64,000 nucleotides of DNA from Squalus acanthias. Lineage: Eukaryota. The notes under the pieces were generated by a model. It was not told the DNA's origin and searched no databases. It saw nothing but the letters and a program-made list of their open reading frames with translations. The stretch covers positions 746,001 through 810,000 of the forward strand of contig JASTWF010000033.1 in NCBI GenBank assembly GCA_030390025.1, in the 5' to 3' direction. Every line of letters starts with the position of its first letter. Position 1 is the first letter of the stretch. The position numbers and the translations under genes are program-made. Positions 23,787 to 56,419 of the stretch are shown in pieces.

Positions 23787-23873
23787 ACTGGGGATCAATA
23801 AACTGGGAGATTCAGGAGTGAAACTACTGTCTGTGGCTCTGAGGAACCCAGACTGTAAAATACAGGAACTGTG
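23787..23873 (+). CDS. NLR LRR exon (87 nt)
   Basis: LGINKLGDSGVKLLSVALRNPDCKIQELW; tgtttag acceptor, GTAAGT donor; phase 2-2. Confidence 0.9.
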
Positions 23874-26752: not shown

Positions 26753-26923
26753 GCTGTATCAAAACGGTCTCACAGATTTTTGTGCCGAGAATCTCGCCTC
26801 CGCTCTCTGTATAAATCGGTCACTGATGGCCCTGCACCTGGGTAATAATAATCTGGGAGATTCAGGAGTGAAACTATTGTTTGCGGTTCTGAGGGACCCG
26901 GACTGTAAAATAAAGGAACTGTG
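26753..26923 (+). CDS. NLR LRR exon (171 nt)
   Basis: LYQNGLTDFCAENLASALCINRSLMALHLGNNNLGDSGVKLLFAVLRDPDCKIKELW; pyrimidine tract + cag acceptor, GTAAGT donor. Not in the ORF track. Confidence 0.92.
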
Positions 26924-27079
26924 GTAAGTGGCAGATTGTGAGAGATTGTGTTGAAATTCACTCACTTTATCGCAGTTTCCATTCGGTTTTAGATTGATAG
27001 ATACAATTTCCAGTGCCTTTACTTAACTCTTTAAAATTTTACTTTCTCAGTCTTTCAGAAGTCAGTTTCTTAGAATATT

Positions 27080-28500
27080 AAGAACATAAGAGTAAGGATC
27101 AGGAGTAGGTCATACGGCCCTGCGAGCCTGCTCCGCTCTTCAATGCGATCATGGCTTGTCTTCGACCTCAACTCCACTTTCCCGCCCGATCCCCCTATCC
27201 CATGATTGCCCTAGAGTCCAAAAATCTATCTATCTCATCCTTGATTATAATCATCGATTCAGCTTCCACAGCCCTTTGGGCAGATAATTCCAAAGATTTA
27301 CAAACTTCTGAGTGAAGAAATTCTTCCTCATCTCAGTCTTAAATGGCCGACACCTTATCCTGAGGCTATGCCCCCTAGTTCTAGACTCTCCAGCCAGGGG
27401 AAACAACCTCTCAGCATCTACCCGGTCAATCCGACTCAGCATCTTATATGTTTCAATGAGATCACTTCTCATTCTTCCAGAGAGTATAGGCGCAAACTAC
27501 TCAATTTCTACAACATAGGACAACGGTCTTATCCCAGAGATCAATCTAATGGAACTTACTTGCGCCGCCTCTAAGGCATGTATATCATTTCTCAGATAAG
27601 GAGACCAAAATAATGCATAGTACACCAGGTGTGGTCTCACCAAAAACCCTGTAGAATTGGAGTAAGACTTCCTTACTCTTGTACTCCAACTCCCTTGCAA
27701 TAAAGGACAACTTTCTATTTGCCTACCTAATTGCTTGTTGTACCAGCATGCTAATTTTCTATGTTTCCTGTACGAGGACACCTACATCTATCTGAACACC
27801 AACATTTAATAGGTTCGCACCATTTAAAAATATTCTGTTTCTCCAGTCTTTTTACCAGAGTGAATAACCTCGCATTTCCTCACATTATACTCCATCTGCC
27901 ACGTTATTTCCCGTTCACTTAACCTGTCTATCTGTGTCCTCCTCACAGCCTTCTTTCCCACCTAGCTTTGTATCGTCAGCAAACTTGGATACATTGCACT
28001 GTGTCCCTTCTTCTAAGTCATTAATATATAATGTAAATAGCTGAGGCCCAAGCACTGATCCTTGCGGCACCCCACTAGTAACAGCCTGCCAACCTGAAAA
28101 AAAAACGTTTATCCCTACTCTCTGTTTTCTGACCGTTAACCAATCCTCTGTTAATGCTACTATATTACCCCCAAATCCATGAGCAATTATCTTGCATAGC
28201 AACCTTTCACGTGGCACCTTATCTAATGCCTTTTGGAAATCCAACTATACTACAATCACTGGTTCCCCTTCATGTACCCTACTAGTTACATTCTAAAAAA
28301 GTCAAACATTTGTCAAACACGATTTCCCTTTCATAAAACCATGATAACTCTGCCTAATCATGTTATGATTTTCTAATTGCCCTGTTAGCACTTCCGTAAC
28401 AATGGATTCCAGCATTCTCCCGATGACTGATGTCAGGTTAACTGGCCTGCAGTTCCCTGCTTTCTCTTTCCCTCCTTTCTTGAATAGAGTGATTAAATTT
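27080..28500 (-). mobile_element. CR1 LINE 3' part
   Basis: aagaacataag tail; [24 protein letters not shown]. Confidence 0.9.
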
Positions 28501-28549
28501 GCAATTTTATACGTTAGTGTCTTAGACGTCAGTTTTTAGGACTTTTAGA

Positions 28550-30060
28550 CTTCAGTGTCAAGTGTTTCTTGGTCAGCTGTCTGTGATTTACAGGTCAGAG
28601 GATTGACTACCATGACAGCCCAGCTGGGATCCTTGCAGCCGCATCCTGCTCTATGTGGGAACTTCAGGGCACTTCATGACCACGTGTGCAAGAAGTGCCG
28701 CCAGTTGCTCGAGCTCAAGCTCCGAGTTTCAGAGCATGGGAAGCGGCTAGAATCACTGCAATAGAACCGGGAACTGGAGTGTTTCCTCGAACGTACGTTC
28801 CAGGATATGGTTACCCAACAGCTGCAGAATGTGCAGGAGGTTAGGGAATGGGACTCCACCAGTAGGAATGCACAGGTACTGCAGGAGTCTCCCAAGCCAT
28901 GGTTTATTGCTAACCGGTTTTGAGTTTTGAATACCGGGGAGGGTGGCTGCTCCTTGTAGGAATGCAATAAGAATCAAACCCCCGGCACCACCCGAGATTT
29001 GACTGCAGACAGGGGAAAAATAAAGAGTTGATATGCAGTATTCATGGGTGATTCGATAGTTAGGCTCATAGACCGGTGTTTCTGTAAAAGTAATCGTGAT
29101 TCCCGAATGGTATGTTGCCAAGGTAAACGAGATCACCGAGCGGAAGCAGGGCTTTCCGCAAGGTGAAGGGGAACAGCCAGAAGACATAGTTAATATTGGA
29201 ACAAGTGGCATATGTTAAAAAAAAGTGTTGAGCTCCTTCAAGCAGAATTTCAGGAGCTAGGAAAAAGATTTACAAAAACAGTAACTCAAAAGTACTAATA
29301 TCACGATTACTCCCAGTGCCACGTGCTGGTGAAGATAGAAACAGTATGTTCTTTCATGTAAATGCATGGCTGGACAAGTGGTGAGGAGAGAGGGCTTCGG
29401 GTTGTTGGGGCATTGGGACCAGTTCTGGGCCAAGTGGAACCTGTACAAGATGGACGGTTTGCACCTGAACAAAAGCCGGTGTCAATGATCTCACTGAGTG
29501 GTTAACTCGTACTGTTGGGGTGGGTTTAAATACATTTGGCAGGGGGATGGGAACCAGGCAATCGCAGAGAGGGGCAGAATAAGATCAGAGGGCAGAGTGA
29601 AATGAACAGCGGTGCAATTAGGAATGTCCCATAAATTGCAGGGACCAGATTGAGGAAAAGAGTGAAAATGATGAAGGAATTATTAAATTGTATGTATGAC
29701 AATGTCCGTAGTGTAACTAATAAGGTTGGTGAGATGCAGGCACAAATTGCTGCATGGGAAAATGCCGTGGTTGTATTAACAGAGATATGGCTCAAACAAG
29801 GCCAGGAATGGATTCTTAATATTCCTGTTCAGCAAGTTTTCATGAATAATAGAGCAAGAAAAAGAGGAGTGGCGTGGCAGTGTTGATTGGAGATGTTGCT
29901 GCATTTCTAAAGGATTACTAGATGGTTCTAGGACTGAATCTGTTTGGATGAGTAGAGGAACAGAGGGAGAGCTGTTATATTGTTGGGAGTTTTTGTCACA
30001 GAGCTCCAAACAGTGAAAAGAAGATAGATGAGCGAAATCGTCCGCTCGTTTCAAAGGCGT
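28550..30060 (+). mobile_element. CR1 5' part (ORF1 Zn-finger/coiled-coil/esterase and start of ORF2 EN), degenerate
   Basis: HVCKKCRQLLELKLRVSE; GDSIVR; NVRSVTNK..LTEIWLKQG. Confidence 0.75.
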
Positions 30061-30062
30061 TT

Positions 30063-33000
30063 AACATAGAAGATAGGAGCAGGAGTAGGCCATTCGGCCC
30101 CTCGAGCCTGCTCCGCCATTCGATGCGATCATGGTTGATCATCCAAACTCAGTACCCTGTCCCTGCCTTCTCCCCATATCCCTTGATACCTTTAGCTTTA
30201 AGAAATATATCTAACTTATTCTTGAATATATTTAATGACTTGGCCTCAACTACCTTCTGTGGTAGAGAATTCCACAGGTTCACCACTCTCTGAGTGCAGA
30301 AATTCTTCCTCATTTCTGTCCTAAATGGCTTACCCCTTATCCTTAGATTATGACCCATGGTTCTGGACTCCCCGACCATCGGGAACATTCTTCCTGCATC
30401 TAGTTTGTCCAGGACTGTCAGTATTTTATATGTTTCGATGAGATCCCCTCTCATTCTTCTATGCTCCAGCGAGTATAAGCCCAATCGACCCAATCTCTCC
30501 TCATATGTCATTCCTGCCATCCCAGCTATCAGCCTTGTGAATCTTCGCTGAACTCCTTCCATGGCAAGAACATCCTTCCTCAGATAAGGCGACCAAAACT
30601 GCACACAGTACTCAAGGTGTGGTCTCACCAAGGCCCTGTACAACTGCAGCATGACATCCCTGTTCCTATACTCAAACTCTTTCGCTATGAAGCCCAACAT
30701 ACCATTTGCCTTCTTCACCGCCTGCTACACCTGCATGCTTATCTTCAGCGACTGGTGCACAAGGACACCCAGGTCTCGTTGCACTTCCCCTTCTCCCAAT
30801 CTATTGCCATTCAGATAATAGTCTGCCTTTCTGTTTCTGACACCAAAGTGGATAACCTCGCATTTATCCACGTTATATTGCATCTGCCACGCTTCTGCCC
30901 ACTCACCCAACCTGTCCAAATCAACCTGGAGTTTCTCAGTATCCTCATCGGAGCATACACGTCCACCCAGCTTTGTGTCATCTGCAAACTTGGAGATATT
31001 ACATTTAGTTCCCTTATCCAGATCATTAATGTATATTATGAATAGCTGGGGTCCAAGGACCGAACCCTGCAGTACCTCACTGCCTGCCACTCGGAAAAAG
31101 ACCCATTAATTCCTACTCTCTGCTTTCTGTCCGCCAACCAGTTCTCTATCCATGTCAATACCTTGCCCCCAATCCCATGTGCCTTAACTTTACACGCTAA
31201 TCTCTTATGCGGGACCTTATCGAAAGCCTTTTGAAAGTCCAAATACACCACATCTACTGGTTCTCCCTTATCTATTTTCCCAGTTACATCCTCAAAAAAT
31301 TCCAGTAGATTAGTCAAGCACGATTTACCTTTTGTAAATCCATGTTGACTTTGTCCGATCCTGTCAATGTTTTTCAAATGCTCAGTTATTACATCCTTTA
31401 TAATGGACTCTAGCCTTTTCCCCACTACCGATGTCAGGCTTACCGGTCTGTAATTCACCGCTTTCTCTCTACCACCCTTTTTGAATAGTGGGGTAACAAA
31501 AGCTACCCTCCAATCCATGGGTACAGTTCCAGATTCCATCGAATGTTGGAAGATGATCAGCAATGCATCTACTATTTCTAGGGCCACTTCCTTAAGTACC
31601 CTAGGATGTAGATTATCAGGCCCTGGGGATTTATCGGCCTTCAATCCCGTCAATTTCCCTAACACCATTTCCCTGAAAATACTGATTTCTTTCAGTTCCT
31701 CCCTTTCATCATACCCTATATTCACCAACATCTCTAGGAGGTTACTTGTGTCCACCTTTGTGAAGACAGAACCAAAATATGCATTTAATTGGTCTGCCAT
31801 TTCTTTGTTCCCCTTTATAACTTCCCCCGCTTCTGACTGCAAGGGACCTACACTTGATTTCACTAAGCTTTTTCTCTTCACATATCTATAAAAGCTCTTA
31901 CAGTCAGTTTTTATGTTCCCTCAAAGCTTACTTTCATATTCTATTTTTCCCTTCTTAATTAATCCCTTTGTCCTCCTTTGTTGAATCCTAAACTGCTCCC
32001 AATCCTCAGGGTTACCGCTTTTTCTGGCCAATTTATATGCCCTCTCCTTGGATCTTATGCTATCCCTAATTTCCATTGTTATTCACGGTTGCGTCACCCT
32101 TTTTGTTTTATTCTTATGCCACACTGGGATGAACAAATTCTGTAGTTCATCCATGCAGTCTTTGAATGTTTGCCATTGCCTATCCACTGTCAACCCTTTG
32201 CGTGGCATTCCCCAATCAATCCTACCCAATTCGCGCCTCATACCATCGTAGTTTCCTTTATTTAAATTCAGGACACTGGTCTCTGATTCAACTACTTCAC
32301 TCTCCATCCTAATGAAGAATTCTATCATATTATGAGCACTCTGACCCAAGCGGCCTCGTACAACAAGATTGCTAATTATTCCTTTCTCGTTACATAATAC
32401 CCAGTCTAAGATGGCCTGATCTCTGGTTGGTTCCTCGACATATTGTTCCAGAAAACCATCCCGTAAACATTCACGGAATTCCTCCTCCACAGTATTTTTA
32501 CTAATTTTGTTAGCCCAATCTAATTGTAAATTAAAGTCAGCCATGATGACGGCTGTGCCCTTACTGCAAGCTTCTCTAATTTCCCTTTTAATGCCATCCC
32601 AAACTCTGTATTACTGTTTGCAGGTCTATATACCACTCCCACTAACGTTTTCTGCCCCTTGTTATTTCTCAGTTCTACCCATACAGATTCCGCATCATCA
32701 GAGCTAATATCCTTCCTTTCAATTGGGTTAATCCCGTCTTTAACCAGCAATGCTACCCCACCTCCCTTTCTGTTTTGCCTATCTTTCCTAAATCATGAAT
32801 ACCCCTGGATGTTGAGTTCCCAGCCTTGGCCACCCTGGAGTCACGTTTCTGTAATCCCAATCAAATCGTTTTCAGTTACCTCTATTTGTGCAGCTAATTG
32901 ATCCAACTTGTTCCGAATGCTCCTTGCATTAAGACACAAAGCCTTCAGGCTTGTTTTTTTTAACGCTCTCAGACCTGTATGATTTATTATTTACTGTGAC

Positions 33001-33600
33001 CATGTTTGATTTAAACCGTTGATTTCTTTGCCTTCTACTTTTGTTTTTCTCCTTCCTGTCTTTTGCTTTTATCCTTGTTTCCCTTTCCTCTGTCTCCCTG
33101 CTTAGTTTCCCAAACCCCAGCCACTTTAGTTTAAACCCTCCCCAAAAGCACTAGCAAACAGTCCCCCTAGGACATCGGTCCCGGCCCTGCCCAGGTGCAG
33201 ACCGTCCTGTTTGTACTGGTCCCACCTATCCAGAACCGCTTCCAATGACCCAGGAATTTGAATCCCTCCCCCTTGCACCATTCCTCTAGCCACGTATTCA
33301 TTTGAAATATCCTCCTATTTCTACTCTGACTAGCACGTGGTACTGGTAGCAATCCTGAGATTACTACCTTTGAGGTCCTATTATTTAATTTACCTCCTAA
33401 CTCCCTATATTCTGCTTTAAGGACCTCATCCCGTTTTTTTACCTACATCGTTGATGCCTATGTGCACCACGACAACTGGCTGTTCGCCCTCACCCTTTAA
33501 AATGTTCTGTAGCCGCTCCGAGACGTCCTTGACCCTTGCACCAGGGAGGCAACACACCATCCTAGAGTCTCGTGTGCAGCCGCAGAAACGCCTATCTATC
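30063..33600 (-). mobile_element. Long CR1 LINE (part of ORF1 + ORF2)
   Basis: ORFs 30149-30718, 30725-31090 and 31036-31881 carry RT motifs; EN and esterase remnants extend to 33600. Confidence 0.93.
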
Positions 33601-36600
33601 TAACAGACATGGATTAGTAATACTAGTAAACTATATTTACCCTAATATAAACTGTGTAAACAAATTGCTCCGGGTAGGGAAGGAGAGGAATTTCTAATGT
33701 ATGTACAAGATAACTTTTTCAATCAATATGGCTCCAGCCCAGCAAGTAAGGAAGCAGTGTTGGATCTGGTTCTAGGAAATGAAGCACAGCCAGTGGATTG
33801 TGTTATAGTAGGACTTTTACTATCCAAATATAGACTGGGATCATAATGGTGTAAAGGGCAGAGAAGGGGATAAGGGGAAGCATTTCTGAAGTGTGTTCAG
33901 CAGAACTTTCTTGACAGTATGTTTCCAGCCCGACAACGGAGGAGGCATTGCTGGATCTGGTTCTTCGGAATGAGGTAGGTCAAGTGAAGCAAGTGTCAGA
34001 ACGTGAAAATTTAGGGAACAGTGATCATAATATAATAAGGTTTAGATTAGCTATGGAAAGGGAGAGGGAGCTATCTAGAGTAAAAATGTTTAACAGGGAG
34101 AAGGCCAATTTCAGTGGGATGAGAACTAGTGGAACAATGGGCTGCCTTTAAAGTGGAAATGGTTCGGGTACAGTCGAGGTACATTTCCACGAGGGAGAAA
34201 GGTAGGGCAACTAAAATCAGAGCTCCCTGGATGAGGAAAAATATAAAGAATATAATGAAGCAGAAAAAATGCGTGTATGACAGATGTCACGTTGCAAATA
34301 CATTTGAGAATCAGGATATATATAGAAAGGTCAGAGGCGAAGTGAAAAAGAAAATAAAATTAGCAAAGAGAGGACATGAGAATAGAATGGCAGCCAATAT
34401 GAACGGTAAAGCAAAATTCTTCTATATTACCGGTTGTTGTTGTTGTATAGACATATAAATAGTAAAAGGGTAGTAAGAGAAACGGTGGGGCCGATTAGGG
34501 ACCAAAGAGGAAACCTATGCATGGAGTCAGAGATTATAGCTGAGCTACTAGAAATACTGAGCTACTGAGCACATAGAAATAAATAAATAAGATCTGAAAG
34601 CCATTACAGAAAATTGGCTCCAAGATGGCATAGATTGGGACCTGAATATTGAAGGCTACATGACATTTAGGAAGGACAGGAAGCACGGAAAAGGTGGAGG
34701 TGTGGCTCTGTTAATTAATGATGGTATTAGCTCAATAGAGAGGGATGCCCTCAGTTCAGGAAACCAGGATGTAGAAGCGGTTTGGGTAGAGATGAGAAAT
34801 GATAAAGGCAAGAAGTCACTTGTGGGAGTGGTGTACAGGCCGCCTAACAATCACATGGTAGGATGGAGTATATAGGAAGGAATAATGGGAGCTTGTTAGA
34901 AAGGTACGGCAATAATCATGGGTGATTCAATCTACATATAGACTGGAAAAATCAGATGGGCAAAGGTAGCGTAGATGAGGAGTTCAAATTATGTTTTCGG
35001 GTTAGTTTCTTAGAACAGCACGTTCTGTAGCCAACCAGAGAGCAGGCTTTACCAGGCCTGGTATTGTGCAACGAGATAGGGTTAATTAATGACCTCATAG
35101 TGAAGGCGCCCCTAGTTAGCAGCGATCATAATATGATTGAATTTTAAATTCAGTTTGAGGGAGAGAAAATTGGGTCCAACACTAGTATTTTAAACTTAAA
35201 TAACGGCAATTATGAGGGCATAAAAGCAGAGCTAGCTAAAGTGAACTGGCAAATTAAGTTAAGGGATAGGTCAAAAGAGTTGCAGTGGAAGACATTTAAG
35301 GAGCTATTTCAAAATACACAGAGCATATACATTCCAATGAGAAAGAAAAATTTCAAGGGGAGGGCCCAACATCCGTGATTAACTAAAAAAGTTAAACATA
35401 GTATCAAACGTAAAGAAAAAGCATATAATTGCGCAAAGATGGGTGGCAGGTCAGAAGATTGGACAGATTATAAAAAAACAGCAAATAATGAATAAAAGAT
35501 TAATAAGGAGAGAAAAATTAGAGTACAAAAGTAACTAGCTAGAAATATAAAAACAGATAGTAAAAGCTTCTTTAGATATTTTAAAAATGGAAAGATTTAA
35601 CAAAGTGAGCGTTGGTAATCTAAAAAGTGATTCTGGGGAATTAATAATGGAAAATAAGGAGATGGCAGTCAAATTGAAAAGATATTTTGCTTTGTTCTTC
35701 ATTATAGAGGATACAAGTAACATTCCAGAATTAGCTGTAAATCAGTAAATGGAAGGGATGGAGGAACTCAAGAAAATTACAATCACCAGGGAAGTGGTAC
35801 TGAGCAAATTGTTGGAGCTGTAGGCTGACAAATCCCAATGTCCTGATGTACTGCAGCCTAGGGTCTTAAAATAAGTGGCTAGTGAGATAGTTGATGCTTT
35901 GGTTTTAATTTTCCAAAATTCCCTAGAGTCGGGGAAGGTTCCATTAGATTGGTAAATAGCGAATGTAACTCCTTTATTCAAAAAGAGAGGGAGACAGAAA
36001 GCAGGAAACTACTGGCCAGTTAGCTTAACATCTGTCATGGGGAAGATGTTAGAAACAATTTATAGCAGGGCACTTAGAAACGTTCTAGGTAATCAGGTAT
36101 AGTCAGCATGGTTTTGTGAAAAGGAAATCATGTTTAATCAGTTTATTGGAATTATTTGAGGAAGTGACGTGCTGTGGATAAAGTGGAACCGGAGGATGTA
36201 CTGTGCTTAGATTTCCAGAAGGCAATTCATAAGGTGCCACATCAAAGGTTATTGCAGAAAATAAAAGCTCATGTTGTAGTGGGTAACATGTTGGCATGGA
36301 TAGAAGATTGGCTAGCTAACAGGAAACAGAGATTAGGCATACATGGGTCCTTTTCTGATTGGCAAGATGCAACGAGTGGTGTGCCACAGGGTTCAGTGCT
36401 GGGGCCTCAACTTTTTACAATTTATATAAATGACTTAAATGATGGGATCAAATGTATGGTTGCTAAATTTGCTGATGACACAAAGATAGGTAGGGAAGTA
36501 AATTGTGAAGAGGACATAAGGAGGCTACAAAGGGATATAAATAGTTTAAGTGAGTGGGCAAAGATCTGGCAAATGGAGTATAAGGTGGGTAAATGTGAAG

Positions 36601-39600
36601 TTGTCCATTTTATCAGGTAGAATAAAAAGCAGCATATTATCTAAATGGTGAGAGATTGCAGAGCTCTGAGATGCAGAGGGATCTGGTTGTACTAGTGCAT
36701 GAATCGCAAAAGGTTACTATGCAGGTAAAGCAAGTAATTAGAAAAGCTTATAACATGTTATCGTTTATACCGAGGGGACTTGAATACAAAAGTAGGGAGG
36801 TTATGCTTCATTTATACAGGGCATTGGTGAGACCACATCTCGAGTACTGTGTACAGTATTGGTCTCCTTATTTAAGGAAGGATGTAAATGCGTTGGAAGC
36901 AGTTCATAGAAGGATTACTAGACTAATACCTGGAATGGGCGGGTTGTCAGATGAGAAAAGATTGGACAGGCTAGGCTTGTATCCGCTGGAGATTAGAAGT
37001 ATAAGAGGTGACTTTATTGAAACATATAAGATCTTGAGGGGTCTGGAGAGGGTGGGTGTGGAGATGATATTTCCTCTGCTTTGAGAATCTAGAACTAGTG
37101 GTCACTGTTTGAAAATAATTGGTCGCCCATTTAAGACATAGATGAGATTTTTTTTCTCACAGAGGGTCGTGAATCTTTGGAACTCTCTTCCTCCAGAGGG
37201 CGGTGGAAGAAGAGTCTTTGAATATTTTTAAGGCAGAGTTAAATAGATTATTGATAAGCAAGGGGGTGAAAGGTTATCGGTGGTAGGCGAGAATGTGCAG
37301 TAATCGGATCAGCCATGATCTTTTTGAATGGCGGAACAGGCTCGAGGGGCCGAGTGGCCTACTCCTGCTCCTAATTCGTATGTACTAAATTAGTACTTTG
37401 GATCTGTCTGCACCAAGGAAGAGCATGCTGCCATAGACATGGTGAAGGAGGAGGTAGTAGAGACACTTGATAAGATAAAAATTGATAAAGTAGAGGTATT
37501 AGAAAGGCTGGCTGTACATAAAGTAGTTAAATCACCGGGAGCAGATGGGATGCATCCTAGGATACTAAGGGAATTGAGGTCGGAAATCGCGAAGGTACCA
37601 GAGGACTGGAGAATTGCAAATGTTACACCATTGTTGAAAAAGGGGTGTAAAGATAAAACCCAGCAACTACAGGCCAGTCACTTTAACCTCGGTAGTGGTC
37701 CAGCTTTTAGAATCAGTAATCTGGGACAAAATCAACAGGCACTTGGATAGGGGTGGATTAATTAACGAAAGCCAGCACGGATTTTTAAAGGCAAATCATG
37801 TTTCTCCAACTTGATCGAAATTTTTGATGAGGTAACAGACAGAGTTGATGAGGCTAATGCGGTTAACATAGTGTACATGGATTTCCAAAAGGCGTTCGAC
37901 AAAGTGCCACATAATAGGTTTGCCAGCAAATTTGTAGCCCATGGAATAAAAGGGACACTGGCAGCCTGGATACGAAATTGGCTAAGTGACAAGAAACAGA
38001 GAATAGTGGTGAACGGATGTTTTTCGGATGGAAGGATGGTATACAATGGTGTTCCCCAGTGGTCGGTTCTAGGACCACTGCTTTTCTTGATATGTATTCA
38101 TGACTTGGACGTAGGTGTACAGACCACAATTTCAAAATTTGCAGATGACACAAAACTTGGAAGTATAGTGAACAGTGATGAGGATAGTGATAGACTTCAA
38201 CAATATATAGACAGGCTGGTGAAGGTGGCAGGGCAGGTTGCAAAAGCAGTTAAAAAAGCTTACGGGATTCTGGGCTTCATAAGTATAGAGTATAGGGTAC
38301 AAGAGTATGGAAATTATGATAAACGTGTATAAAACACTGGTTAGACCCTAACAGAAGTACTGTTTTCAATTCTGGGCACCACTCTTTAGGAAGGATATGA
38401 AGGCCTTAGAGAGGGCGCAGAAAATATTTACGAGAATGATTCCAGGAATGAGGGACTTCAGTTACGTTGATAGACTGGAGAAGTAGGAATTGTTCTCCTT
38501 GGAGCAGAGATAATTGAGAGGAGATTTGTTAGAGGTGTTCAAAATCATGAGGGGTCTGGACGGAGTAGAGAGAGAGAAACTGTTCTCATTGGCAGAAGGG
38601 GCGAGAACCAGAGGATACAGATTTAAGGTGATTGGCAAAACAAATACAGGCGACGTAAGAAAAAACTTTTTTATACAGTGAATGGTATGATCTGGAATGC
38701 ACTGCCTGAAAGGGTGGTGGAGGCAGACTCAATTTTATCTTTCAAGAAGGAGTTGGATAAGTATGTAAAGAGGAAAAAATGCAGGGCTACAGGGAAAGGG
38801 CAAGGGAGTGGGACTCCCTGAGAGTCGGCACGAGATCGACGGGCCGAATTGCCTTCATCCGTGCTGTAACCATTCTATGATTCTATGATTCTAACATTTA
38901 GTTAACAGTACCCACAACATAACTCGGTTTAAAGTAATTATGAAAAGAGACCAGAAAATGTCGAATCTAAAAATGCTAACCTATGGATGAGATAATTTCA
39001 GTAATTTAAGAATCTAGCAAAAGTAGATTGGAAAATGCGATTGCAGGGTAAATCAGTAACGGAGCAATGGGTGCATTCAGGGGAGAGATAGTTCAGGTAA
39101 CACCAAGGCATATTCCTTTGAAGGGAAAAGATAGAGCATCCAAAGCTAACGCGCACCTGGATTAAAAAATAAATAAAAGTTAAAATAAGACAGAAAAAGG
39201 AGGCTTATGACAAATATCAGGAGCAAGATTCAGTTGATAACCATGAAGATTATGAAAAGTACAGGAAGGAATTGAAAACAAGTTAATTCGTGAGGCAAAG
39301 AGAGGTTACGAGAAAAGATTAGCAAGCAGACATTAAATTGAACGCTATTTTTTTTCATAAACATATAAAGTGTAAGCAGTTTACTCGGAAAAATTTGGGC
39401 CTATTAAGGAACCAAAGGGAAATCTTCATGCAGAGACAGAGGACATGGCAAAAGTATTAAATGAGTACTTTGCATCTATCCTCACAAAGGAAGTGGATGA
39501 TGTGAAGGTTACATTAAAGATGAGAGGGTGGTTATGGACAGGATAATAATAGAAAATGAAGATGTACTAACGAGATTAGTATTACACAAAGCTGGTAATT

Positions 39601-40328
39601 CACCTGGTACAGATGGAAAGCATCCTAGGTTGCTGAAAGAAGTAAATGTAGAAATAGCAGGGCATTGGTCATATTCTTTCAACCCTCATTGGATACAGAA
39701 GTAGTGCCGCTATATCACTATTGAAGAAAGGGGAGAGGGATAAACCAGGAAACTACAGGACAGCCAGCCTAACATCGATGGTGGAGAAGATATTGGAAAC
39801 CATTATCAGGGATAAATTAAACTATCATTTGCAAAGGCATACGTTAATCAAGGAGAGCCAGGATGGATTTGTTAAAGGTTAATCGTCTTTGGCGAACCTG
39901 ATTGAATTCTTTGACGAGGTAACAGAAAAGGTGGATAAAGAGAGTGCATTAGATGTTGTATATATGAACTTTGGTAAGGAGTTCTTCAAAAGGCAACACA
40001 GGAGACTTATTAAGAAGATCGAAGCCCATGGAATTAAGGGGAATTTGGCGGTATGGATAAAAAAATGGCTCAGTGACAGGAAGCAATGGGTGGTGGTGGC
40101 TGGATTTTTTTTCAGACAGGGAGGTGGATTACAGTGTGGTTCCCCAAGGGTCAGTTTTGGGTTCATTACAAATTTCATTTTTTATAAATGAACTAAACAA
40201 ACTTATACAGTTTGCACATGATACGAAACTTGGCAAAGTAGTAGATCACGATAAGGATAGGCAAAGACTTTAGTCTGACTTAGATGATGAAATGGCATGG
40301 CAAATGGAGTTCAAAGCAGAGAACTGTG
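33601..40328 (+). mobile_element. Three nested + strand CR1 copies (outer 33601-33812/38894-40328; middle 33813-34550/37383-38893; inner ~34580-37382)
   Basis: ORF2 homology restarts twice and later resumes. The inner copy is bounded by TACTA (34546-34550, 37383-37387). The middle copy ends in (ttctatga)n at ~38893. Confidence 0.8.
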
Positions 40329-43300
40329 AACATAGGGGAATAGACACAGGAGAAAACCATTTAGCCCTCGTGCCGTTCCGCCATTGAATGAGATCATGGC
40401 TGATCTGCTAACAAACTCCACATACCCGCCTTTGCCCCATACCCCATAAAACCTTTGGTTAACAAACTCTATGAATCTCAGATTTAAAATTAACAATTGA
40501 TCTAGCATTAATCACCGTTTGTGAAAGAGAGTTCCAAACTTCTACCACCATATGTGTGTAGAAGTTTTTCCTGATTTCACTCCTGAACGGTCTGGCTCTA
40601 ATTTTTAGATTAAGCCTCTGAGCCCTAGAATACCCAACCAGAGGAAATAGTTCATCCCTATCTGTTTTTATTCATTTATGGGATGAGGGCATCGCTGGCA
40701 AGGCCAGCATTTATTGTCCAACCCTAAATGCCCTTGAGAAGGTGATGGTGAGCCGCTTTCTGGAACCGCTCCGGTCTACGTTGTGAAGGTACCCCCATGA
40801 ACTGTTAGAGAGGGAGTTCCAGGACTTTGACACAGCGACGATGAAGGATCGGTGATATATTTCCGAGTCAGGATGGTGTGTGACTTGGAGGGGAACTTCC
40901 AGGCGATGGTGTTCCCATGCGCATGCTGCCCTTGTCCTCCAAGGTGGTAGAGGTCGCGGGTTTGGGAGGTGCTGCCGAAGAAGCCTTGGCGAGTTGGTGC
41001 AGTGCATCTTGTATATGGTACACACTGCAGCCACGGTACGCCGATGGTGGAGGGAGTGAATATTTAAGGTGTTGGCTGGGGTGCCAGTCAATCGGGCTGC
41101 TTTGTCCTGGATGGTGTCGAGCTTCTTGTGTGTTGCTGGAGCTGTACTCATCCAGGCAATTGGGAGTATGGCATCACACTCCTGACTTGTGCCTTGTGGA
41201 TGGTGGAAAGGCTTTGGGAGTCAATAGGTGAGACACTGGGTGCAGAATTGCAAACTTCTAACCTGCTCTTATTGCCACGGTATTTATGTGGCTGGTCCAG
41301 TTAAGTTTCTGATAAATGGTGACATTCAGGATGTTGATGTTGGTGGATCCAGAGATGTTGGTTATTCTCTCGTTGGTGGGAGAATGTCATTGACTGAAAC
41401 TTGTGTGGCGCAAATGCTACTTGTCACTTATTAGCCCAAGCCTGATTGTCGTCCAGGTCTTGCTGCATGCGGGCATGGACTGCTTCATGATTTCAGGAGT
41501 TGCGAATGCCACTGAAATATGTGCAGTTGTCGGCGATCAACACCACTTCTGCCTTTATGATGGAGGGAAGTTCATTGTTGAAACAGCTGAAGATGGTGGA
41601 ACCTAGGACACTGCCCTGAGGAATTCCTGTAATGATGTCCTGGGGCTGTGATGATGGACCTCCAACCACCATAACCATCTTCCTTTGTGCAGTGTATGAT
41701 TCCAGCCAGTTGAGAGTTTGCCCCCTGATTACCATTGACATCAGTTTTAATCGGGCTACTTCATGTCACACTCGGTCAAATCCTGCCTTAATGTGAAGGG
41801 CAGTCAATCTCACCTCTCTTCTGGAATTCAGTACTTTTGTCCATGTTTGGACCAAAGCTCTAATGAGGTCTGGAGCCGTGTGGTCCTGGCAGAACACAAA
41901 CTGGGCATCGGTGAGCAGGTAATTGGCGAGTAAGTGGCACTTGATAGCACTGTTGACGACACCTTCCATCATTTTGCTGATGATTGAGAGTAGACTGATG
42001 GGGCGGTAATTGGCTGGATTGAATTTGCCCTGCTTTTTGTGGACAGGACACACCTGGGCAGTTTTCCACATTGTCGGATAAATGCCAGTGTTGTAGCTGT
42101 ACTGGAATAGCTTGGCTAGAGGCGCGGCCATTTCTGGAGAACACGTCTTCAGGACGACAGCCGGGTTGTTGTCGGGGCCCATAGCCTTTGCTGTATCCAG
42201 TATGCACAGCCGTTTCTTGAAATCACGTGGAGTGTATAGAATTTGCTTAAGACTGGCTTCTGCGACGGCGGCGACCTCAGGAATAGGCCGATATGAATCA
42301 TTCACTCGGTACTTCTGGCTGAAGATGGTTGCAAACTCTTGCGCCTTGTCTTGTGCACTCACGCGCTGGACTCCGCTATCATTAAGGATGGGAATATTCA
42401 TGGAGCCTGATCCTTCCTTTAATTGTTTAAATGCCCACCACCATTCACGACTGGATGTGACAGGACTGCAGAGCTTTGATCTGATCCTTTGATTGTGAGA
42501 TCGCTTAGCCCTGTCTCTAGCGAGCTGCTTCCGCTTTTTAGCATGCATGTAGTCCTGTGTTGCAGCTTTCCTAGGTTGGCACCTCATTTTTAGGTACGCC
42601 TCGTGCTGCTCCTGGCATGCTCTTGCACACTCATTATTGAACCAGGGTTGTTCACCTCGCTTGATCGTATTGGTAGAGTGAGGGATATGCCGGGCCATGA
42701 GGTTACGGATTGTGGTGGAATACAATTCTGCTGCTGCTGATGGCCCACAGCGCCTCATTGGTTCACAGTTTTGAGCTGTTAGATCTATTCCGAATCTATC
42801 CCATTTAGCACGGTGGCAGTGTCGCAAAACACGATGGAGGGTGTCCTCAGTGTATAGACGGGACTTTGTCTCCACATTGACTGTGCGGTGGTCACTGCTA
42901 CAAATGTTGTCATGGACAGATGCATCTGCGAGAGGTACATGGGTGAGGACGAGGTCAAGTAGGTTTTACCCTCATGTTGGTTCTCTTACCACCTGCCGCA
43001 GGTCCAGGCTGGCAGTTTAGGACACGGCCTGCTCGGTCAGTAGTGGTGCTACCGGTCCAATCTTGATGATGACATTGAAGTCACCCATCCAGAGCACGTT
43101 CTATACCCTTGCTAATCTCAGTGTTTTGTGTAAGTGGTGTTCAACATGGAGGAGTACTGATTCATCAGCTGAGGGAGTGTGGTATGTCGTAATCAGCAGG
43201 AGTTTTCCTTTCCCATGCTTGATCTGAAGACTTCATGGATTCCGTAGTCAATGTTGAGGTCTCCCAGGGCCACTCCCTCCAGACTGTATACCACTGTGCC

Positions 43301-43720
43301 GCCACGCCTATTAGGTTTGTCCTGCCGTTGGGACAGGACATACCAGGGATGGTGATGAAGGAGTCTGGGACACTATCTGTTCCCCTTAATATCTTGAAAA
43401 CATCGATCAAATCACCCCTTAACCTTCTAAATTCTAGGTAATACAACCTAATTGTGTAATCGCTCCTCGTAATTTAACCATTGGATTTCCGGTATAATTC
43501 TGGTAAATCTACTCTGCACTCCCTCCAAGGCTAATATATCCTTCATAGGATTTGATACCTGGAACTGCTCACATTACTCCAGATGTGGTGTAAACAAGGT
43601 TTTGTATAGCTGTAGCATAACTTCTACCTCTTGTACTCTCGTCCTGTAGATATAAACGCCAAGATTCGATTAGCCTTTGTCATTATTGACTGTACCTGTT
43701 CATTACATTTTAGTAATCTA
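40329..43720 (-). mobile_element. CR1 3' fragment split by a second LINE family
   Basis: CR1 3' UTR at 40329; RRLRGDLIDVFKILRG resumes at ~43380-43440. Confidence 0.8.
40667..43372 (-). mobile_element. LINE of a distinct family (EN-RT, CR1/L2 group), 5' truncated
   Basis: 369-aa ORF 41766-42875 (KAMGPDN, NYRPISLLSIISKMMEG) and GIPQGSVLG; TSD CTATCTGTT at 40658-40666 and 43373-43381. Confidence 0.88.
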
Positions 43721-43853
43721 TGCTCTAATTTTCTATGAATCTATAATAACTGGATATCTTAAACTGTACGTTATTATTAATATCAGTAATAGTGTTATTA
43801 ATCATACTGGGGAATTACTCTGATTCCTGTTATTTCTCTCACTCTGATCCCAG

Positions 43854-44021
43854 GCTGTATAATAACGGTCTCACAGATTCTTGTATCGAGGATCTCGTCT
43901 CCGCTGTCAGTACAAACCGATCACTGACGGATCTGACCATGGGAGCAAATCGCTTCACAGACCGATCTGTCCCCGCTCTCCGAAACCTGATACTGACCTG
44001 CAGGAGTCTGAAATGGATGGC
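43854..44021 (+). CDS. NLR LRR exon (168 nt)
   Basis: LYNNGLTDSCIEDLVSAVSTNRSLTDLTMGANRFTDRSVPALRNLILTCRSLKWM; cccag acceptor, GTGAGT donor. Confidence 0.9.
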
Positions 44022-44193: not shown

Positions 44194-44281
44194 GCTGAAG
44201 GGGAATCAGTTCAGTTCAACAGGAGAGAAACAGCTGAAGTCACTGCAAGGAACAAGACGCGGTCTGAGAGTGGATGTGTAA
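44194..44281 (+). CDS. NLR terminal coding exon (LKGNQFSSTGEKQLKSLQGTRRGLRVDV*)
   Basis: tcctgtttcag acceptor; phase 2 continues into an LxxNxF LRR cap; TAA at 44279-44281. Confidence 0.85.
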
Positions 44282-46319: not shown

Positions 46320-47150
46320 CATCGCCCCCTCCTTTCATCCCCCAGTCTCTGCATTAGCGACTCCTCATCCTTGGTGATATCAAACTCTATTTGAACTCCA
46401 CCATTCCCTCATACTCTGTGCTCTGCTCTCCTGACTTCGCTCAATATTTCTCATATAAAGTCTTCTACCCATATTCACAACTGCCCTCTCGATGTTGCCA
46501 TCTCACTGGCCTGTCTACTATTGTCTCTACAACAGACAAGGTCATCTTTGATCACCTTTTCGTATCCCTCACTATCCACATTCCTCAGCCACTTTCAACA
46601 ACATTTCTTGTGGCTTATGCCACTGTAATAAACTTCCCCCTAAGTAATTTGCCATTGAAACTTTAAGCTGCCAGCCGTCTTGCGGTTGTCTCGCAATTCG
46701 CCATGATCCTTCTGTTGCTGTCGATGTTCTCCTCCCCCTTTGATGACCTGGACACCAGTAAAATCCTCACTCTCTCCAACCGACGCAGTTCCTTCTGGTA
46801 TGGCCCCATCTTCACTCAGTCAATTCCAAGCCGTACAGCCGGAAACGTATCCGGCGCACAACTGGTTCAGCCATCTATCGGCAGGTCTTCCTGAACCACA
46901 TCAAGCACTATCGGGCCCTGCTCTCCTCTGACAAAATTGTTCAGTATTCCAGGGTCACCTTAGAGAGCAAAGACACCCCCGATCTTATTGTCTCCCCTGC
47001 GAACTGAAACTCTTTCCCTCCGCTCAAACCGCCCTGACCTCCCACAAGAAGTGCTCTCGGGCTCGATATTTATCGTATCAGATTTCTGTGAAGCGCCAGT
47101 GGATGTTTTATTATGTTAAAGGCGCTATATAAATGACAGTTGTTGTCTTT
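46320..47150 (+). mobile_element. Degenerate L2 fragment
   Basis: LILGDIKL (EN-like) at ~46370 and L2 tail tgtgaagcg..gttaaaggcgctatataaat at 47087-47135. Confidence 0.6.
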
Positions 47151-47543
47151 GAAATTCCGACTTTCATTCTTGATTAATGAGAATATTTCTGGAAAATACT
47201 TTCACATTTTTTGATCTTGCCGCAGTCCAGGAATATCATTTCTAGCAGCCCAAAGTGACTGGACCTGGCCGTCCCTCCGAATCACGGCCGTTGTTCCCCA
47301 AACCGACAATAAAGAGCCGCAGTTCTATTCCATTACGCCAGATGGACTGTTCAGGTTCCCGGCCTGCTTTGGAAACTTTATTTGAAGTGAAAGGTTTGCG
47401 AACCCCAGGACACTGAAAGAAGAGGATCAAGGGAGCGCCCAGAGGCCGGGGCTGCGACAGGAGGTCGCTCGTCTCACTGCCGACCAGCAGCTCCATCCCA
47501 AGATCTAACTCCCAGCTTTTTAACTCTTATCGTTTATTTAATT

Positions 47544-47763
47544 GTGAGAAGTCGCACAACACCAGGTTATAGTCCAACAGTTTTATTTGAAATCACAAGC
47601 TTTCGGAGCGCTGCTCCTTCGTCAGGTGAAGTCTGACTTCACGTGACGAAGGAGCAGCGCTCCAAAAGCTTGTGATTTCAAATAAAACTGTTGGACTATA
47701 ACTTGGTGTTGTGCGACTTCTCACTTTTGTCCACCCAAGTCCAACACCGGCATCTCCGCATCA
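47544..47763. mobile_element. Palindromic Penelope-like terminal element with TSD
   Basis: 90-bp arms (47544-47633, 47635-47724) with 3 mismatches plus a short tail; TSD CGTTTATTTAAT at 47531-47542 and 47764-47775. Confidence 0.8.
47593..47629 (-). ncRNA. Minimal type-I hammerhead ribozyme (Penelope-associated)
   Basis: Minus strand: TCAC-CTGACGA-A-GGAGC-AGC-GCTCC-GAA-AGCT-T-GTGA, i.e. stem I, CUGANGA core, stem II, GAAA and a palindromic AGCU stem III. Confidence 0.7.
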
Positions 47764-48064
47764 CGTTTATTTAATGTAACAGACACAAACACTGGTATTC
47801 GTTCAAAATCAAACTGTAGGTGGCCACACACAGATACACACAGCCAGAGATACAGAGAGTATCGGAAAACAAGAGTTACTGACAAGGACAAAGAACATTA
47901 GACCATTGCCTGAACCCCTGTGGTCAATGAATGTTTTGATAGTTGACTTCCTTATTCATGTTGGAATTCAGGAGAACTTGGTTGTTTGTAGAACAATTTG
48001 AACCCCTGGGGCGGAACCAACGCTGCATCGCTGTATAAGCAACAAAGCTGCAGACTTTAACCAG

Positions 48065-48139
48065 GCTCGACTAGCCGAATCGGTACTGCATGAGTCTGTC
48101 AATGACCAGTAGTGGTTGGTTCGAGCTCCCCGTTGGGTG
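48065..48139 (+). pseudogene. tRNA-Lys(CTT)-derived pseudogene
   Basis: GCTCGACTAGCCGAATCGGTA..GCATGAG..GGTTCGAGCTCCCCGTTGGGTG aligns by eye to vertebrate tRNA-Lys-CTT; anticodon arm broken; T7 follows. Confidence 0.6.
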
Positions 48140-50119
48140 TATATTTTTTTAACCTTTCATGTTGCTTTCACGGGCGACCCCCCAGCTCTGATTTCCCACG
48201 GCAGCGTCACCGCGCTGAAAACGAGTCTTTTTCGGCACCTTTTTATTAATAATATAATTGCGGGTTTAGAAGTGTAAACTGGCCTCCGCTTCACTGTAAT
48301 TGACAGAGATAACATTGTAGATGCCAGGTAATCAGAGAATTATAGAATGATACAGCACAGAATGAGGCCATTCGGTCCATTGTGCCTGCGCCGGCTCTTT
48401 GGCAGAGCTATCCCATTAATCCCTCTCACCTGCTCTTTCACCATAGCCCTGTATTTTTTTCTCTTCAATAATGTACAGTAAATGGTAAAACTTTAAAAGG
48501 AACAGAAAGAGTTAAGTATTCAGATACACAAACATTTCTGACTGGCCTCACACTCTCTGAGGTTACAACCTCCCCTGCTTCATTGTTCTTTGCGAGGCAG
48601 GAGTGATGTTCCAGTCACAACTCTGTCCGAACAAAACTGGCTACAGTCACATAATTAGAATAGCCGCGTCCTGGGGACCGAGAGCAGCCGGTCCACGTCG
48701 AGGAAGAACCAGATTTGACATTTTTTATACATAGCCATTTTTTGTGATCTGGAATGCACTGTCTGAAAGGGCGGTGGAAGCAGCTTCAATGGAGAACAGG
48801 ATAATTACTTGAAGATAAATTTTAGTGGGCTATGGGGAAATAGCAGGGCATTGAGATGAATTGGACAGATCCCCCAACGAACCGGCACAGGAACGATGGG
48901 CAGAATGAACTCCTTCCGTGCTGTTTAATTATATAATTCTATGATTCTATTAAAAGGAAGCCAGCGAGAATAATCTAATTTAGTCGATTAGAGGAGGACA
49001 ATTCGGGAGCTCCATCAGAATGTTAATCACTTAAAAAATCAATTTCCTATGAGACTAGTGTGGTTTCGATCAGTGAAATGTCTGTAAAATGCAACGGAGG
49101 AGAAGGATTAAGACTTTTTCGGGTGGGACATAAGTGACGTTTTTCATGGCCATTGAAACTTCCAATATTTACGGAGCAAGAGAATGATTGGAACGTTCTT
49201 TGGCCTCTGTGGCGAAATTCAGGCATATTGACGAGGTTGATCTTTCTGCCGTCTGACTCCCATTCATGTTTCATCTTCCTCTATTGAATGAGAAAGGAGG
49301 GGGTTTGACGGTGACCAGACCCGCAGTGCGCCTGATATTTGTGAGATCATCCTTTATATTTAGTGTTTTCGGCCCCTTTGGTCGGGGTCAGCTTTTGCTC
49401 AGCGGTTACTTCGCAGCACCAACTTCATCAGGAGTTCGAATCTGTCGCGCTGCCTGGCGCTTTATTGTTATTTTCAATCCACTTCTTTTACACCGAAACA
49501 AACTGTAACCGTGATTTTTAGAATCCACCTTTAAATTATTCAGAAAAGTCTCCTTTCACGTGTCATTCCCGTTATTTCTGTACCCGTGTTGAAAATAAAA
49601 CAAATGCCTCGAGTTTTCGCATTTTCAATCGAACACCGAAAAGTAATTTCCAAATACTGAGTAATATGTTTGGAAGGAGGTGCCGCTAACAAGCGGAATA
49701 TCTGATTGTGTTATTGATGATTGAGCGTAAAGCATTGCACACTCAGGGCTTTTCCATTTCATGAAACAACTTTGGGTTAAGCCGAGCCAGGTACATGGCT
49801 TGTGAAATAATCTGAGGCACCAGGTCGAAGCCAACAGCCGTCTCGCTGCAATAAGAGACATGGAGAAGCGATTGAGACATTCGCGGCCAGCTCAGTCTTA
49901 AAAGTGTGGTGTTCTAGTCAAGGCCCTGTCCGAACAAAGCTGGCCAGAGTCACAGATTTCCAGCACCCGCAGTATTTTAATTTTGTGTCAGCGTGGATCA
50001 GTTTACTCTCACTTAACGTTCACTGTTTAGAGAACTGAAAGAACGAGCTTTTAAAGAACGAGGCAGCGGTCACTGCCGCCCAGTTTGACCGGAGAATAAA
50101 CTCGGCCTTGTTTGTTCAT

Positions 50120-51399: not shown

Positions 51400-51962
51400 T
51401 CATATAGAACCATGATTATACGACACTTGGAGTTCAGGTCTCCATAATATAAGAAGGATATAGAAGCTTTGTAGAAGGTGCAAAAAGGATTTACGAGAAT
51501 GTTACTACAACTCAGAGGTAATACCTATCAGGGAACTTTGAACAGGCCAGGTCTCTTATATCAGGTCACCCCTCAGACTGAGCGGTGACCTGTTAGCAGT
51601 CTTTAAAATTCTGAAATAATTTGATATGGTAGACGTGGAGAAGATGCTTCTACTGGGCGGGGAAGCCAGAACTAGGGGCGAAAAATATAAGATAGTCATG
51701 CATGAATCAAATAGGAAATTCGGGAGAAACTTCTTTACCCAGAGAGTGGTTAGAATGTGGAACTGGCTACCAAAAGGAGTAATTGAGGCGAATTGCACAG
51801 CTGCATTTAAGGGGAATCGAGACAAACATATGAGAGGAAAGTAGAGGATATGTTGATGAGTTAGATGAAGAGGTGGCTCGTGTGGAGAATAAAAACACGG
51901 GCAAGGACCTGTTGGGATGAATGGACTGTCCCCCTGCTGTAAATATTGTGTAATACTGTGTA
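51400..51962 (+). mobile_element. CR1 3' fragment
   Basis: FFTQRVVRMWNWLP remnant and CR1 3' UTR. Confidence 0.8.
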
Positions 51963-53875: not shown

Positions 53876-54441
53876 CTGCACATGATGCAAGGCGGAGGAA
53901 TGGAAAATATTGCCAGTTCGGAGCGGTAGTATTCGAAAGGGAGGAAAAAAGAAAACACAGTCACCAGCGTTGTGATTAGATCCGCTTCAGGAAACGGAAT
54001 CAGAGGAGAATGAAGGACGAACCGCCCGATTGACCAGAGGCGGTTAAGACTCCATTTCCTGGTTTCAGACACTGGAACATTTTCTCGGATGTTATCGGTG
54101 ACATTAACTGCTCTGAGACATTTACAGGATTCTCGTTACTGCAGATCAGGAAATCAAACGTAACATTGGGTTCGGGACAATCAGAGTAATTCGGAACAAA
54201 CAAGGCACCGAAAGGCTGGTAGGGAGACCGCACCGGTTGCAGGAGAGCTGGTTCACGGTGACATGGGTGTGTCTGCAGTGTGCGGGACCAGACAGTCTCT
54301 GTGTGTTCACAATGTATGTCGCATTCTTTAATTTGGAAATGTAAAACTGATACTGTGCAATTGCTAATCCGGACGCAGCAATCTGAAACTTTAACTCGCT
54401 GACACCCTGGTTTAGGAAATCTTGCAACAATGCCTTCGGCT

Positions 54442-54515
54442 GTCTCCGTGGCGCAATCGGTTAGCGCGTTCAACTCTTAACTGAAAGGTTGGTGGTTCGA
54501 AACCACCCAGGGACG
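54442..54515 (+). tRNA. tRNA-Asn body with CTT (Lys) anticodon; possibly a pseudogene
   Basis: 74 nt, nearly identical to vertebrate tRNA-Asn-GTT; intact A box (TGGCGCAATCGG) and B box (GGTTCGAAACC); loop CT-CTT-AA at 54474-54480; T-run terminator at ~54529. Confidence 0.85.
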
Positions 54516-56419
54516 AATAATTTAATTGTTTTTTTCCCCTTTATGATTCATTGCCGCACAGTTCCAAGTTGTCACTATTTGCTTTGGCTGCAGGAAATTA
54601 TTCCGCACACATTGCCAGCTGTGCTGTTATCCAGTAAATTCCCACCCAAATACTTTTATGAGCACTCAATTCAAATCAAATGATAAAAACATGCAGATGG
54701 ATCATGTTCCTCCATCCAACCCGTTAGAAATATCTTAAGTTATTGGGTTCAAATAAACTGATGGAAATTGATTGTGTATCTACATATATAGAACTGGAAC
54801 ACGTCATCGCACCGTGTGAGGCTGCATTGAATGTGTCGCTATTGTACAGCTGATAATAGGGAAAACAATTTAAAACACGCTGGGCCATTTTAGTGATAAT
54901 TTAGCTCCATCTAATAACTGTATTTTTTCAATGTAAAACGTTGTAAAACACTGCGGTCTGACAGCAGGCACATGCGAACATGATGCAATATTTGTGTAGG
55001 CGTCATGCTCTGGAACTCCCTGCCTAAACCCCTCCACCTTTACCCCTCCCTCACCTCCTTTCAGACCCTCCTTAAAACAGAAGGCTTTGAACAGTTTGGG
55101 TCACCCCTCTTAATAGTTCCATATTAGTGTAATATAGTGAGCTAAACCTGACGCCGATCACAGGGGCATAAAACACTTAATATAAGGATGAACTCACAAA
55201 TATCAGGCGCAGTGCGGGTCTGGTCAACGTCAAACTCCTCCTTTCTCATTCAGTAGAGGAAGAAGAGACTCAACGCGGGTCAGACGCCAGAAAGTTTAAT
55301 AAATAGAACAACAAAAGACACAAATACAAGTAACATCTATTTCCAAATCTTATCAATGCACATTTATTCCACTTTATATAAAAGCTTACTGCTCTGAATT
55401 TGAAAATGAGCAGCATGTGGTTTGTGTTCACCAGTGACTTGTATTCCTATGCGTATCCTTCAAGTTTGCAATTCAGTTTGTATTGGATATTGAAGAGTCT
55501 CGAATTTCAAGATGAGGGCACAACGCACCACGTGTAAAGCAACCGACTTCTTTAACGGCAGATAGAGTGTTTCCAACACCTGTGCTACCAGACCCTTTCA
55601 ATACCTTTCAGCGGGTAGATTGATGACAGAATGTGCAGAATAGGAAACAAAATTACTCCAACGTCATTGAAAGTTATCGATCATTTTTCTAAGTTAGGGT
55701 CATGTACACAATGATCAAGTGAAAAAAAGTTTCTCTATTTCAACCCTATTAATTCATCTCATAATTCTAAAAACCTCAATGAAATCAGCGCTAAACCTTC
55801 TATATTCCAAGGAATACAGGCCTAGTTTATGTAATCTCGCCTCATAATCTAATCATTGGACCCTGCAAACATTCTGATGGATCTGTGCTGCACAGATTCC
55901 GAGGCCAATGTCAAACCTTTCTGAGGTGCCGGACCCAGAACTGTACAGAGTACTCCAGAGGTGGTCTAACCAGGACTTTGTACAGCTTTAGCAAAACTTT
56001 CTTTAGTATAACTGCCTCTCTAACAGATTATACAGCTCGTGTGATTGGATTGTATATACCGCCTCGGCAAAATAAGGACTCGTTTGATCGAAATAAACTC
56101 TTTAAAAAATTCGATTTGAAATCAATTCCACAAATAAATATATTTTTTAACGAAACTGTGTAAGAATTCCGGGTTCAAGTTTCAGTGTCATTGAATCAGG
56201 GGAACTTCGTCAGTCACCGCTCACTGTGCATCGACACGGCAGAGGCTCCCACACCTCTGACAATATTGTTTTTCCAAATTCTCAGTTTTCAAAATGGAAT
56301 TGGATAATTACTAGAAAGGGAAACATGTGTAGGTCTATGGGGAAAGTGAAGGGGTGTCGGATAATTGGGGCACTTGTAAAGAGCCGGCACAGGCACGATG
56401 GGCGAATTGCCTCCTTCTA

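Follow-up and report, generated by a model that had tools for sequence, protein, structure and literature searches.

A 221-bp insertion in the 64,000-nucleotide stretch of Squalus acanthias DNA analyzed here (the window) is, taken as a whole, best explained as a dead-on-arrival stump of a very abundant Penelope-like element (PLE) family, a reading to which a probability of roughly 0.85 was assigned. The hammerhead motif within it would be a passenger, and the base changes in its plus-strand arm and tail would be neutral or copying errors.

The insertion comprises an inverted and a direct copy of a 5'-truncated terminal repeat, joined head to head, and an unpaired tail, enclosed by an exact target-site duplication (Table 1). 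A 12-bp duplication near these boundaries has a chance probability of ~5e-5, with 441 placements allowed for. An earlier note on this DNA had described two 90-nt arms (47544-47633 and 47635-47724) around a single T (47634), three arm mismatches (47565/47703, 47604/47664, and 47625/47643), and the duplication, and each was found as claimed. The same note had proposed a 181-bp insertion; the insertion stands but the size does not, as 221 bp (47543-47763) lie between the duplications when the 39-nt unpaired tail, which proves diagnostic, is included. Because the family continues differently after 47632, the family-derived arms are 89 nt long around a 3-nt loop. Family loose ends at 47543 and 47545 in public contigs adjoin the single T that precedes the left arm. 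This is the only long inverted repeat with a short loop in the window, the next being an imperfect 40-nt palindrome in an NLR intron (26037-26076). An 18-nt inverted pair around a single base (51559-51595; 89% complementary) is possibly another small fold-back junction. An assembly artefact was rejected, as contigs from two sequencing runs (X1 and X6) cover the right junction.

Table 1. Coordinates of the insertion, its hammerhead, and neighboring features in the window
Feature	Position	Strand	Remarks
Inferred last coding exon and stop of NLR	44196-44281	+	stop 44279-44281
Decayed 18S rRNA fragment	47102-47524	-	Rfam E 7.1e-9, 39.3 bits, below gathering score 50
Left target-site duplication copy	47531-47542		83% A+T; exact 12-bp match to right copy
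Single T between left duplication and left arm	47543		arm end or added base
Inverted 5'-truncated PLE terminal repeat copy	47544-47632	-	starts at the family's short end, without tail
Intact minimal type I hammerhead	47593-47629	-	features as in the cited part of PMC4209133
Fold-back junction, 3 nt	47633-47635		not family sequence; loop of predicted hairpin
Direct 5'-truncated terminal repeat copy	47636-47724	+	C3G (47643), G12A (47664, CpG), T at 47703
Unpaired PLE tail, 39 nt	47725-47763	+	ends at the family's long end
Right target-site duplication copy	47764-47775		exact 12-bp match

The insertion lies beyond the stop of an NLR gene on its sense strand, 3.26 kb downstream, as the earlier note had placed it. 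The NLR is on the plus strand (NACHT E value, 7.9e-32; Pfam). Its NACHT, winged-helix, and HD2 domains occupy 20924-22360, and its LRR exons lie near 23790, 24097, 26754, and 43855. The reading frame of the NACHT exon shifts by one base at five consecutive A residues (20944-20948) within the Walker A motif, reflecting either a pseudogene or an assembly error, and a 17-kb intron of the gene (26918-43855) holds many decayed LINE reverse-transcriptase fragments in both orientations. ATTAAA (45223) and AATAAA (46627 and 47308) hexamers occur between the NLR stop and the insertion. Several diverged, low-depth relatives of the 18S rRNA fragment in runs X1, X5, and X10 stop near 47525. To the right, the element was inserted into a moderately repeated sequence (47776-48020). 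The window also contains a single tRNA gene (54441-54516, plus strand; anticodon CTT), whose body presumably resembles tRNA-Asn more than tRNA-Lys and which is perhaps an anticodon-shifted copy or a pseudogene.

The repeat family and its Penelope-like anatomy

Contigs from four of 24 sequencing runs (X1, X5, X6, and X10) aligned to 47150-48150 at 82% likeness. The summed contig depth over the element in X1, which is not a copy number, was 1.5e5-3.3e6, versus 12.2 for the exact left-flank contig, and shows that the family is very large; run X10 places it in a second organism too. Among the best 24 of 593 rows, loose ends with unrelated flanks (agreement of 0.37-0.45 at the main sites) gather at 47543-47545 and 47763, with counts among the rows listed of 57, 45, and 78 (X1) and 33, 37, and 55 (X5). 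The family has two fixed ends, ~39 nt apart. Loose ends behind 47632, in contrast, share a common consensus (agreement of 0.49-0.77) in all four runs; the family is therefore longer than the arm and continues 5' of the hairpin center, and the central 3 nt are not family sequence. The consensus behind 47763 begins alike in X1, X5, and X6 and, together with the last base of the tail, spells a start codon, possibly that of the parent open reading frame (ORF).

Base readings were taken from the best 40 of 90 rows, with 47664 and every left-arm position outside those 40. Position 47643 reads C in 96% (X1), 91% (X5), and 99.6% (X10) of depth, so the G of the plus-strand copy, which might have been the family consensus, is instead rare; the share of C is probably understated, because the left arm is the better match for intact copies. 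The family base at 47737 is C in 99% of depth (X1), where the tail of the studied copy has A. At 47703, C accounts for 88% (X1), 96% (X5), and 14% (X10) of depth, and T may be a family variant because of the low share in X10. Family insertions listed at 47609 coincide with loop II. The repeat family of the flank carries the duplication-like sequence once, just before 47780, in X1 and X10, which supports the duplication being target DNA. An empty allele of the exact insertion site was absent among the best 15 of 91 joints. Pattern searches for other copies gave no match in viral contigs, in prokaryote genomes, or, with the core pattern, in metagenome contigs. The tail pattern gave two matches in metagenome contigs, each limited to 20 nt of a G+C-rich contig that was otherwise unlike the element, and both are attributed to chance.

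Every structural feature of PLEs that was tested is present here: an inverted truncated repeat beside a direct one, a one-sided tail of 39 nt, family ends fixed at two points, a 12-bp duplication in DNA of 83% A+T, and variable 5' truncation of a longer element. With the target duplication and the high-copy family, this anatomy bears out the proposal that the sequence is a mobile-element insertion. The defining enzyme (reverse transcriptase plus GIY-YIG) is not linked to the repeat: no PLE reverse transcriptase or GIY-YIG domain was found by Pfam among 11 ORFs chosen from 50 ORFs of the window plus one exon, and PLE motifs had no match in its six frames. In the cited parts of two papers, PLE insertions are heavily 5' truncated and often carry, at the 5' end, a truncated copy in inverted orientation, with a 30- to 40-bp tail at one end (Craig et al. 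2021, PMC8557442), and the same pattern occurs with 8- to 10-bp duplications in rotifers (Arkhipova et al. 2013, PMC3846280). The insertion shares with the complex insertions described there the head-to-head inverted truncated repeat, the one-sided tail, the duplication, and the A+T-rich target. It differs in that only two truncated repeat ends remain, in 221 bp with no ORF, and in the 12-bp length of its duplication.

In its reverse-transcription geometry, the insertion resembles PAc, a Poseidon-type PLE of Anolis carolinensis, for which the cited part of PMC11167929 (Frangieh et al. 2024) describes a protein that cleaves each strand of A+T-rich DNA and extends it, and a tail that is the stretch between two internal start sites of reverse transcription. 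Two such sites would bound the tail here. The PAc ORF begins at stem II of the hammerhead, and reverse transcription is initiated 111-118 nt further on; here, the outer site lies 113 nt from where stem II starts. Both elements have a 3' stem-loop, formed here by predicted pairing of the tail (47725-47763) with 47689-47697. Unlike PAc, no start codon is seen at stem II here, and no protein is linked to the repeat.

Origin of the head-to-head pair

The two arms were most likely made as separate cDNAs. By analogy with PLE biochemistry, a PLE protein would nick each strand of an A+T-rich target, with an offset of 12 nt. From one nick, reverse transcription would be primed at the outer of the two internal start sites (47763) and give the plus-strand arm with its tail; from the other, it would be primed at the inner one, which lies 39 nt upstream, and give the inverted arm. 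Both cDNAs would stop just 5' of the hammerhead and be joined head to head via three extra bases, and repair would duplicate the target. The hairpin would then have been made at insertion rather than being the mobile unit. Two separate cDNAs would explain an inverted arm that starts at a fixed family site and junctions that are mostly asymmetric.

The junctions of other copies bear on this mechanism. Among the arm-to-arm joints listed, all 18 that were counted have different fold-back points, and 15 of these show an asymmetry of >3 nt. Twelve are from 15 listed joint rows (three flank rows were left out, and 76 further rows are not in that list), and six further joints are from a second list of 12, whose other rows were set aside as duplicates (three), go-back rows (two), or flank sequence (one), with 46 rows not in that list. 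With short sides of 20-29 nt at 82% likeness, joints of this kind are unreliable; they are therefore suggestive singly and useful only together.

A snap-back, in which the truncated end of a single cDNA turned back on the same strand and used it as template, would have the same origin and is a rival for the mechanism only. It is possible but rather unlikely. Self-priming has been proposed for PLE inverted junctions in the cited part of PMC3846280, the perfect symmetry and minimal 3-nt loop of the studied copy fit it as well as they fit two cDNAs, and copies with a center 4 nt shorter occur in five (X1), four (X5), and one (X10) contigs. Self-copying alone, however, leaves the end of the inverted arm at a fixed family site unexplained, and the predominance of asymmetric joints counts against it.

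Two cDNAs and snap-back both make the hairpin a product of insertion. The earlier note had instead taken the hairpin to be mobile and non-autonomous; on this view, the 181 bp would move in hairpin form as a unit resembling a MITE or a retrozyme. This idea, which is very improbable, draws on the high-copy sequence, the target duplication, the near-identical arms, and some other copies that fold back at almost the same point. It is not supported, as the family continues beyond the hairpin center and the counted joints all lie at different places. Furthermore, the X1 depth at 47633 (64,870) is a few percent of that of the arm (2.5e6 at 47609), and no piece spans the center unchanged among the best 32 of 27,049 pieces. 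The 39-nt tail lies inside the duplication, so that the inverted repeats are not terminal, and there are no tandem units.

MITEs and fold-back DNA transposons end on both sides in inverted repeats that adjoin the target duplication; this class was rejected because 39 unpaired nucleotides separate the right arm from the duplication. Animal non-LTR retrozymes, in the cited parts of PMC7229834 and of a preprint (bioRxiv 10.64898/2026.07.22.740005), resemble the insertion in being short, noncoding, tied to PLEs, and equipped with a type I hammerhead. Their units of 150-450 bp are repeated in tandem, head to tail, their ribozymes are mostly canonical, and they have circular RNAs, whereas a single head-to-head pair with a minimal motif is present here, and a retrozyme was rejected since no head-to-tail tandem hammerhead units were found.

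The hammerhead motif and its predicted folding

The minus strand carries a complete minimal hammerhead of the PLE type, as the earlier note had claimed. Its order is stem I, the CUGACGA core, an extra A, stem II, GAAA, AGCU, and U at position 17. Stem I has 4 bp (47629-47626 with 47596-47593) and stem II has 5 bp (47617-47613 with 47609-47605); C3 is at 47625, G12 is at 47604, and the predicted cut falls between 47597 and 47596. This copy has the cores, both stems, the extra base after A9, the G10.1-C11.1 pair, and the palindromic 15-16 positions of PLE minimal hammerheads, with no helix III, and both stems had a computed probability of >0.98 in the isolated arm. In the plus-strand copy, the core residues are changed as had been reported (47643, C3G; 47664, G12A), and its core is not intact. 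An AATAAA hexamer lies on the sense strand of the repeat (47681-47686).

The scan named in the earlier note gave a divided result: the core pattern was found, but Rfam hammerhead models had no match at any threshold tried. A missing match is probably to be expected where helix III is absent. Chance alone often yields the bare core pattern (nine matches in the window versus 6.95 expected), so the case for a hammerhead rests on the stems and the family rather than on the pattern. Rfam microRNA matches were far below gathering scores and are artefacts of the hairpin, and a microRNA gene was rejected.

Metazoan PLE minimal hammerheads, as described in the cited part of PMC4209133 (Cervera and De la Pena 2014), are likewise of type I without helix III and have a short stem I, the extra base after A9, G10.1-C11.1, and palindromic 15.1-16.1 positions; stem II has 7-8 bp in Schistosoma compared with 5 bp here. 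Minimal hammerheads are paired there on opposite strands 100-700 bp apart, whereas the two studied here adjoin so closely that they pair together. Two of the three supplement files of that paper contain no shark or Callorhinchus entry. Computed energies were -19.1 kcal/mol for a forced dimer geometry, -20.0 for a pair of monomers, and -28.9 for the most stable co-fold, values that speak neither for nor against cleavage as a dimer.

Computed folding strongly favors the hairpin over either ribozyme. The whole-RNA hairpins (-166.5 and -170.9 kcal/mol) were 55.8 and 59.9 kcal/mol better than ribozyme-keeping folds, nascent RNAs ending at stem I already favored the hairpin by 47.0 and 48.8 kcal/mol, and the computed probability of stem II in the insert RNA was <1e-16. 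As the pair is head to head, RNA from either strand would make the complement first and the ribozyme second, and neither copy should fold. The long double-stranded RNA hairpin anticipated by the earlier note is thus predicted to form if the locus is transcribed. Fold-back stumps of this kind would silence their own ribozymes and would give 90 bp of double-stranded RNA wherever they were transcribed.

According to the earlier note, loss of the plus-strand ribozyme could reflect either chance or selection against a copy that would cleave read-through RNA of the NLR. In support of selection, the C3G change, which is rare among family members, abolishes cleavage by the anole PLE hammerhead in the cited part of PMC11167929, and G12 is the general base of the hammerhead according to the cited part of PMC6155905. 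The chance of at least two of three changes falling in the core of a named arm is 0.011-0.052. A contig of X6, a run that is RNA by guess only, covers the right junction (47749-47912; depth, 3.6), which does not establish transcription, and X6 has no cover of the left flank. Against these points, the hairpin is predicted to sequester the plus-strand copy whatever its core, so that a sense-strand core change would gain nothing and random mutation would be the simplest explanation. Moreover, single minimal hammerheads gave no cleavage in the cited part of PMC4209133, and the anole one requires its protein (PMC11167929, same part).

The coincidence itself is mild: for either arm, the chance is 0.02-0.10, post hoc among very many copies, and the G12A substitution is a transition at a CpG. 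A single core change would be enough, and a second would gain nothing. Two more noncore changes (47703 and 47737) lie in the same arm and tail. The apparent placement of all three arm mismatches on the plus-strand arm (a 1 in 4 chance for either arm) is instead a point against the main reading, a PLE stump with neutral changes. In addition, the hexamers between the NLR stop and the element are of the poly(A) type, and the frameshift in the NACHT exon means that the NLR gene may be broken. With both strands blocked by the predicted hairpin, selection against cleavage of NLR read-through RNA is scarcely credible.

Fold-back points and the predicted cut site

The ends of other copies raise the question of whether the family hammerhead cuts its RNA in vivo, with cut RNAs serving as templates and many copies beginning at the cut. 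Of the 36 arm ends of the 18 counted joints, eight fall no more than 3 nt from the predicted cut (between 47671 and 47672 on the right arm), where 2.9 are expected (Poisson P of 0.010, chosen post hoc); by arm, these are 5 of 18 on the right (P of 0.005) and 3 of 18 on the left (P of 0.25). Two of the three near-symmetric joints are also within 3 nt of the predicted cut. The 5' ends of other copies cluster at 47668-47677 and the mirror stretch 47591-47600, although this clustering is weak and possibly an alignment effect.

Cleavage in vivo is nevertheless doubtful. An equally dense cluster (5 of 18, 47704-47710) follows a private mismatch, some 7-nt window reaches 5 of 18 with a P of 0.20, and stalling of reverse transcription at stem I predicts the same cluster of ends. 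The studied copy itself extends 36 nt beyond the cut site on both arms. The cited part of PMC11167929 reports no RNA reads ending at the anole cut site. Literature titles outside subscription papers and bioRxiv supplements included none on shark PLE hammerheads, strand-biased loss of PLE cores, or truncation at cut sites.

As a PLE stump, the locus is a tidy example of an already described insertion pattern and matters little singly. The large set of young, precisely ended copies in the family could, in contrast, map start sites of reverse transcription, truncation points, and fold-back junctions, and the family could test two cDNAs against snap-back and whether the minimal hammerhead cuts in vivo. 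If it does, the genome would be a record of PLE ribozyme activity in vivo, which is not shown in the cited parts of the papers, and the large copy number would make that activity directly measurable.
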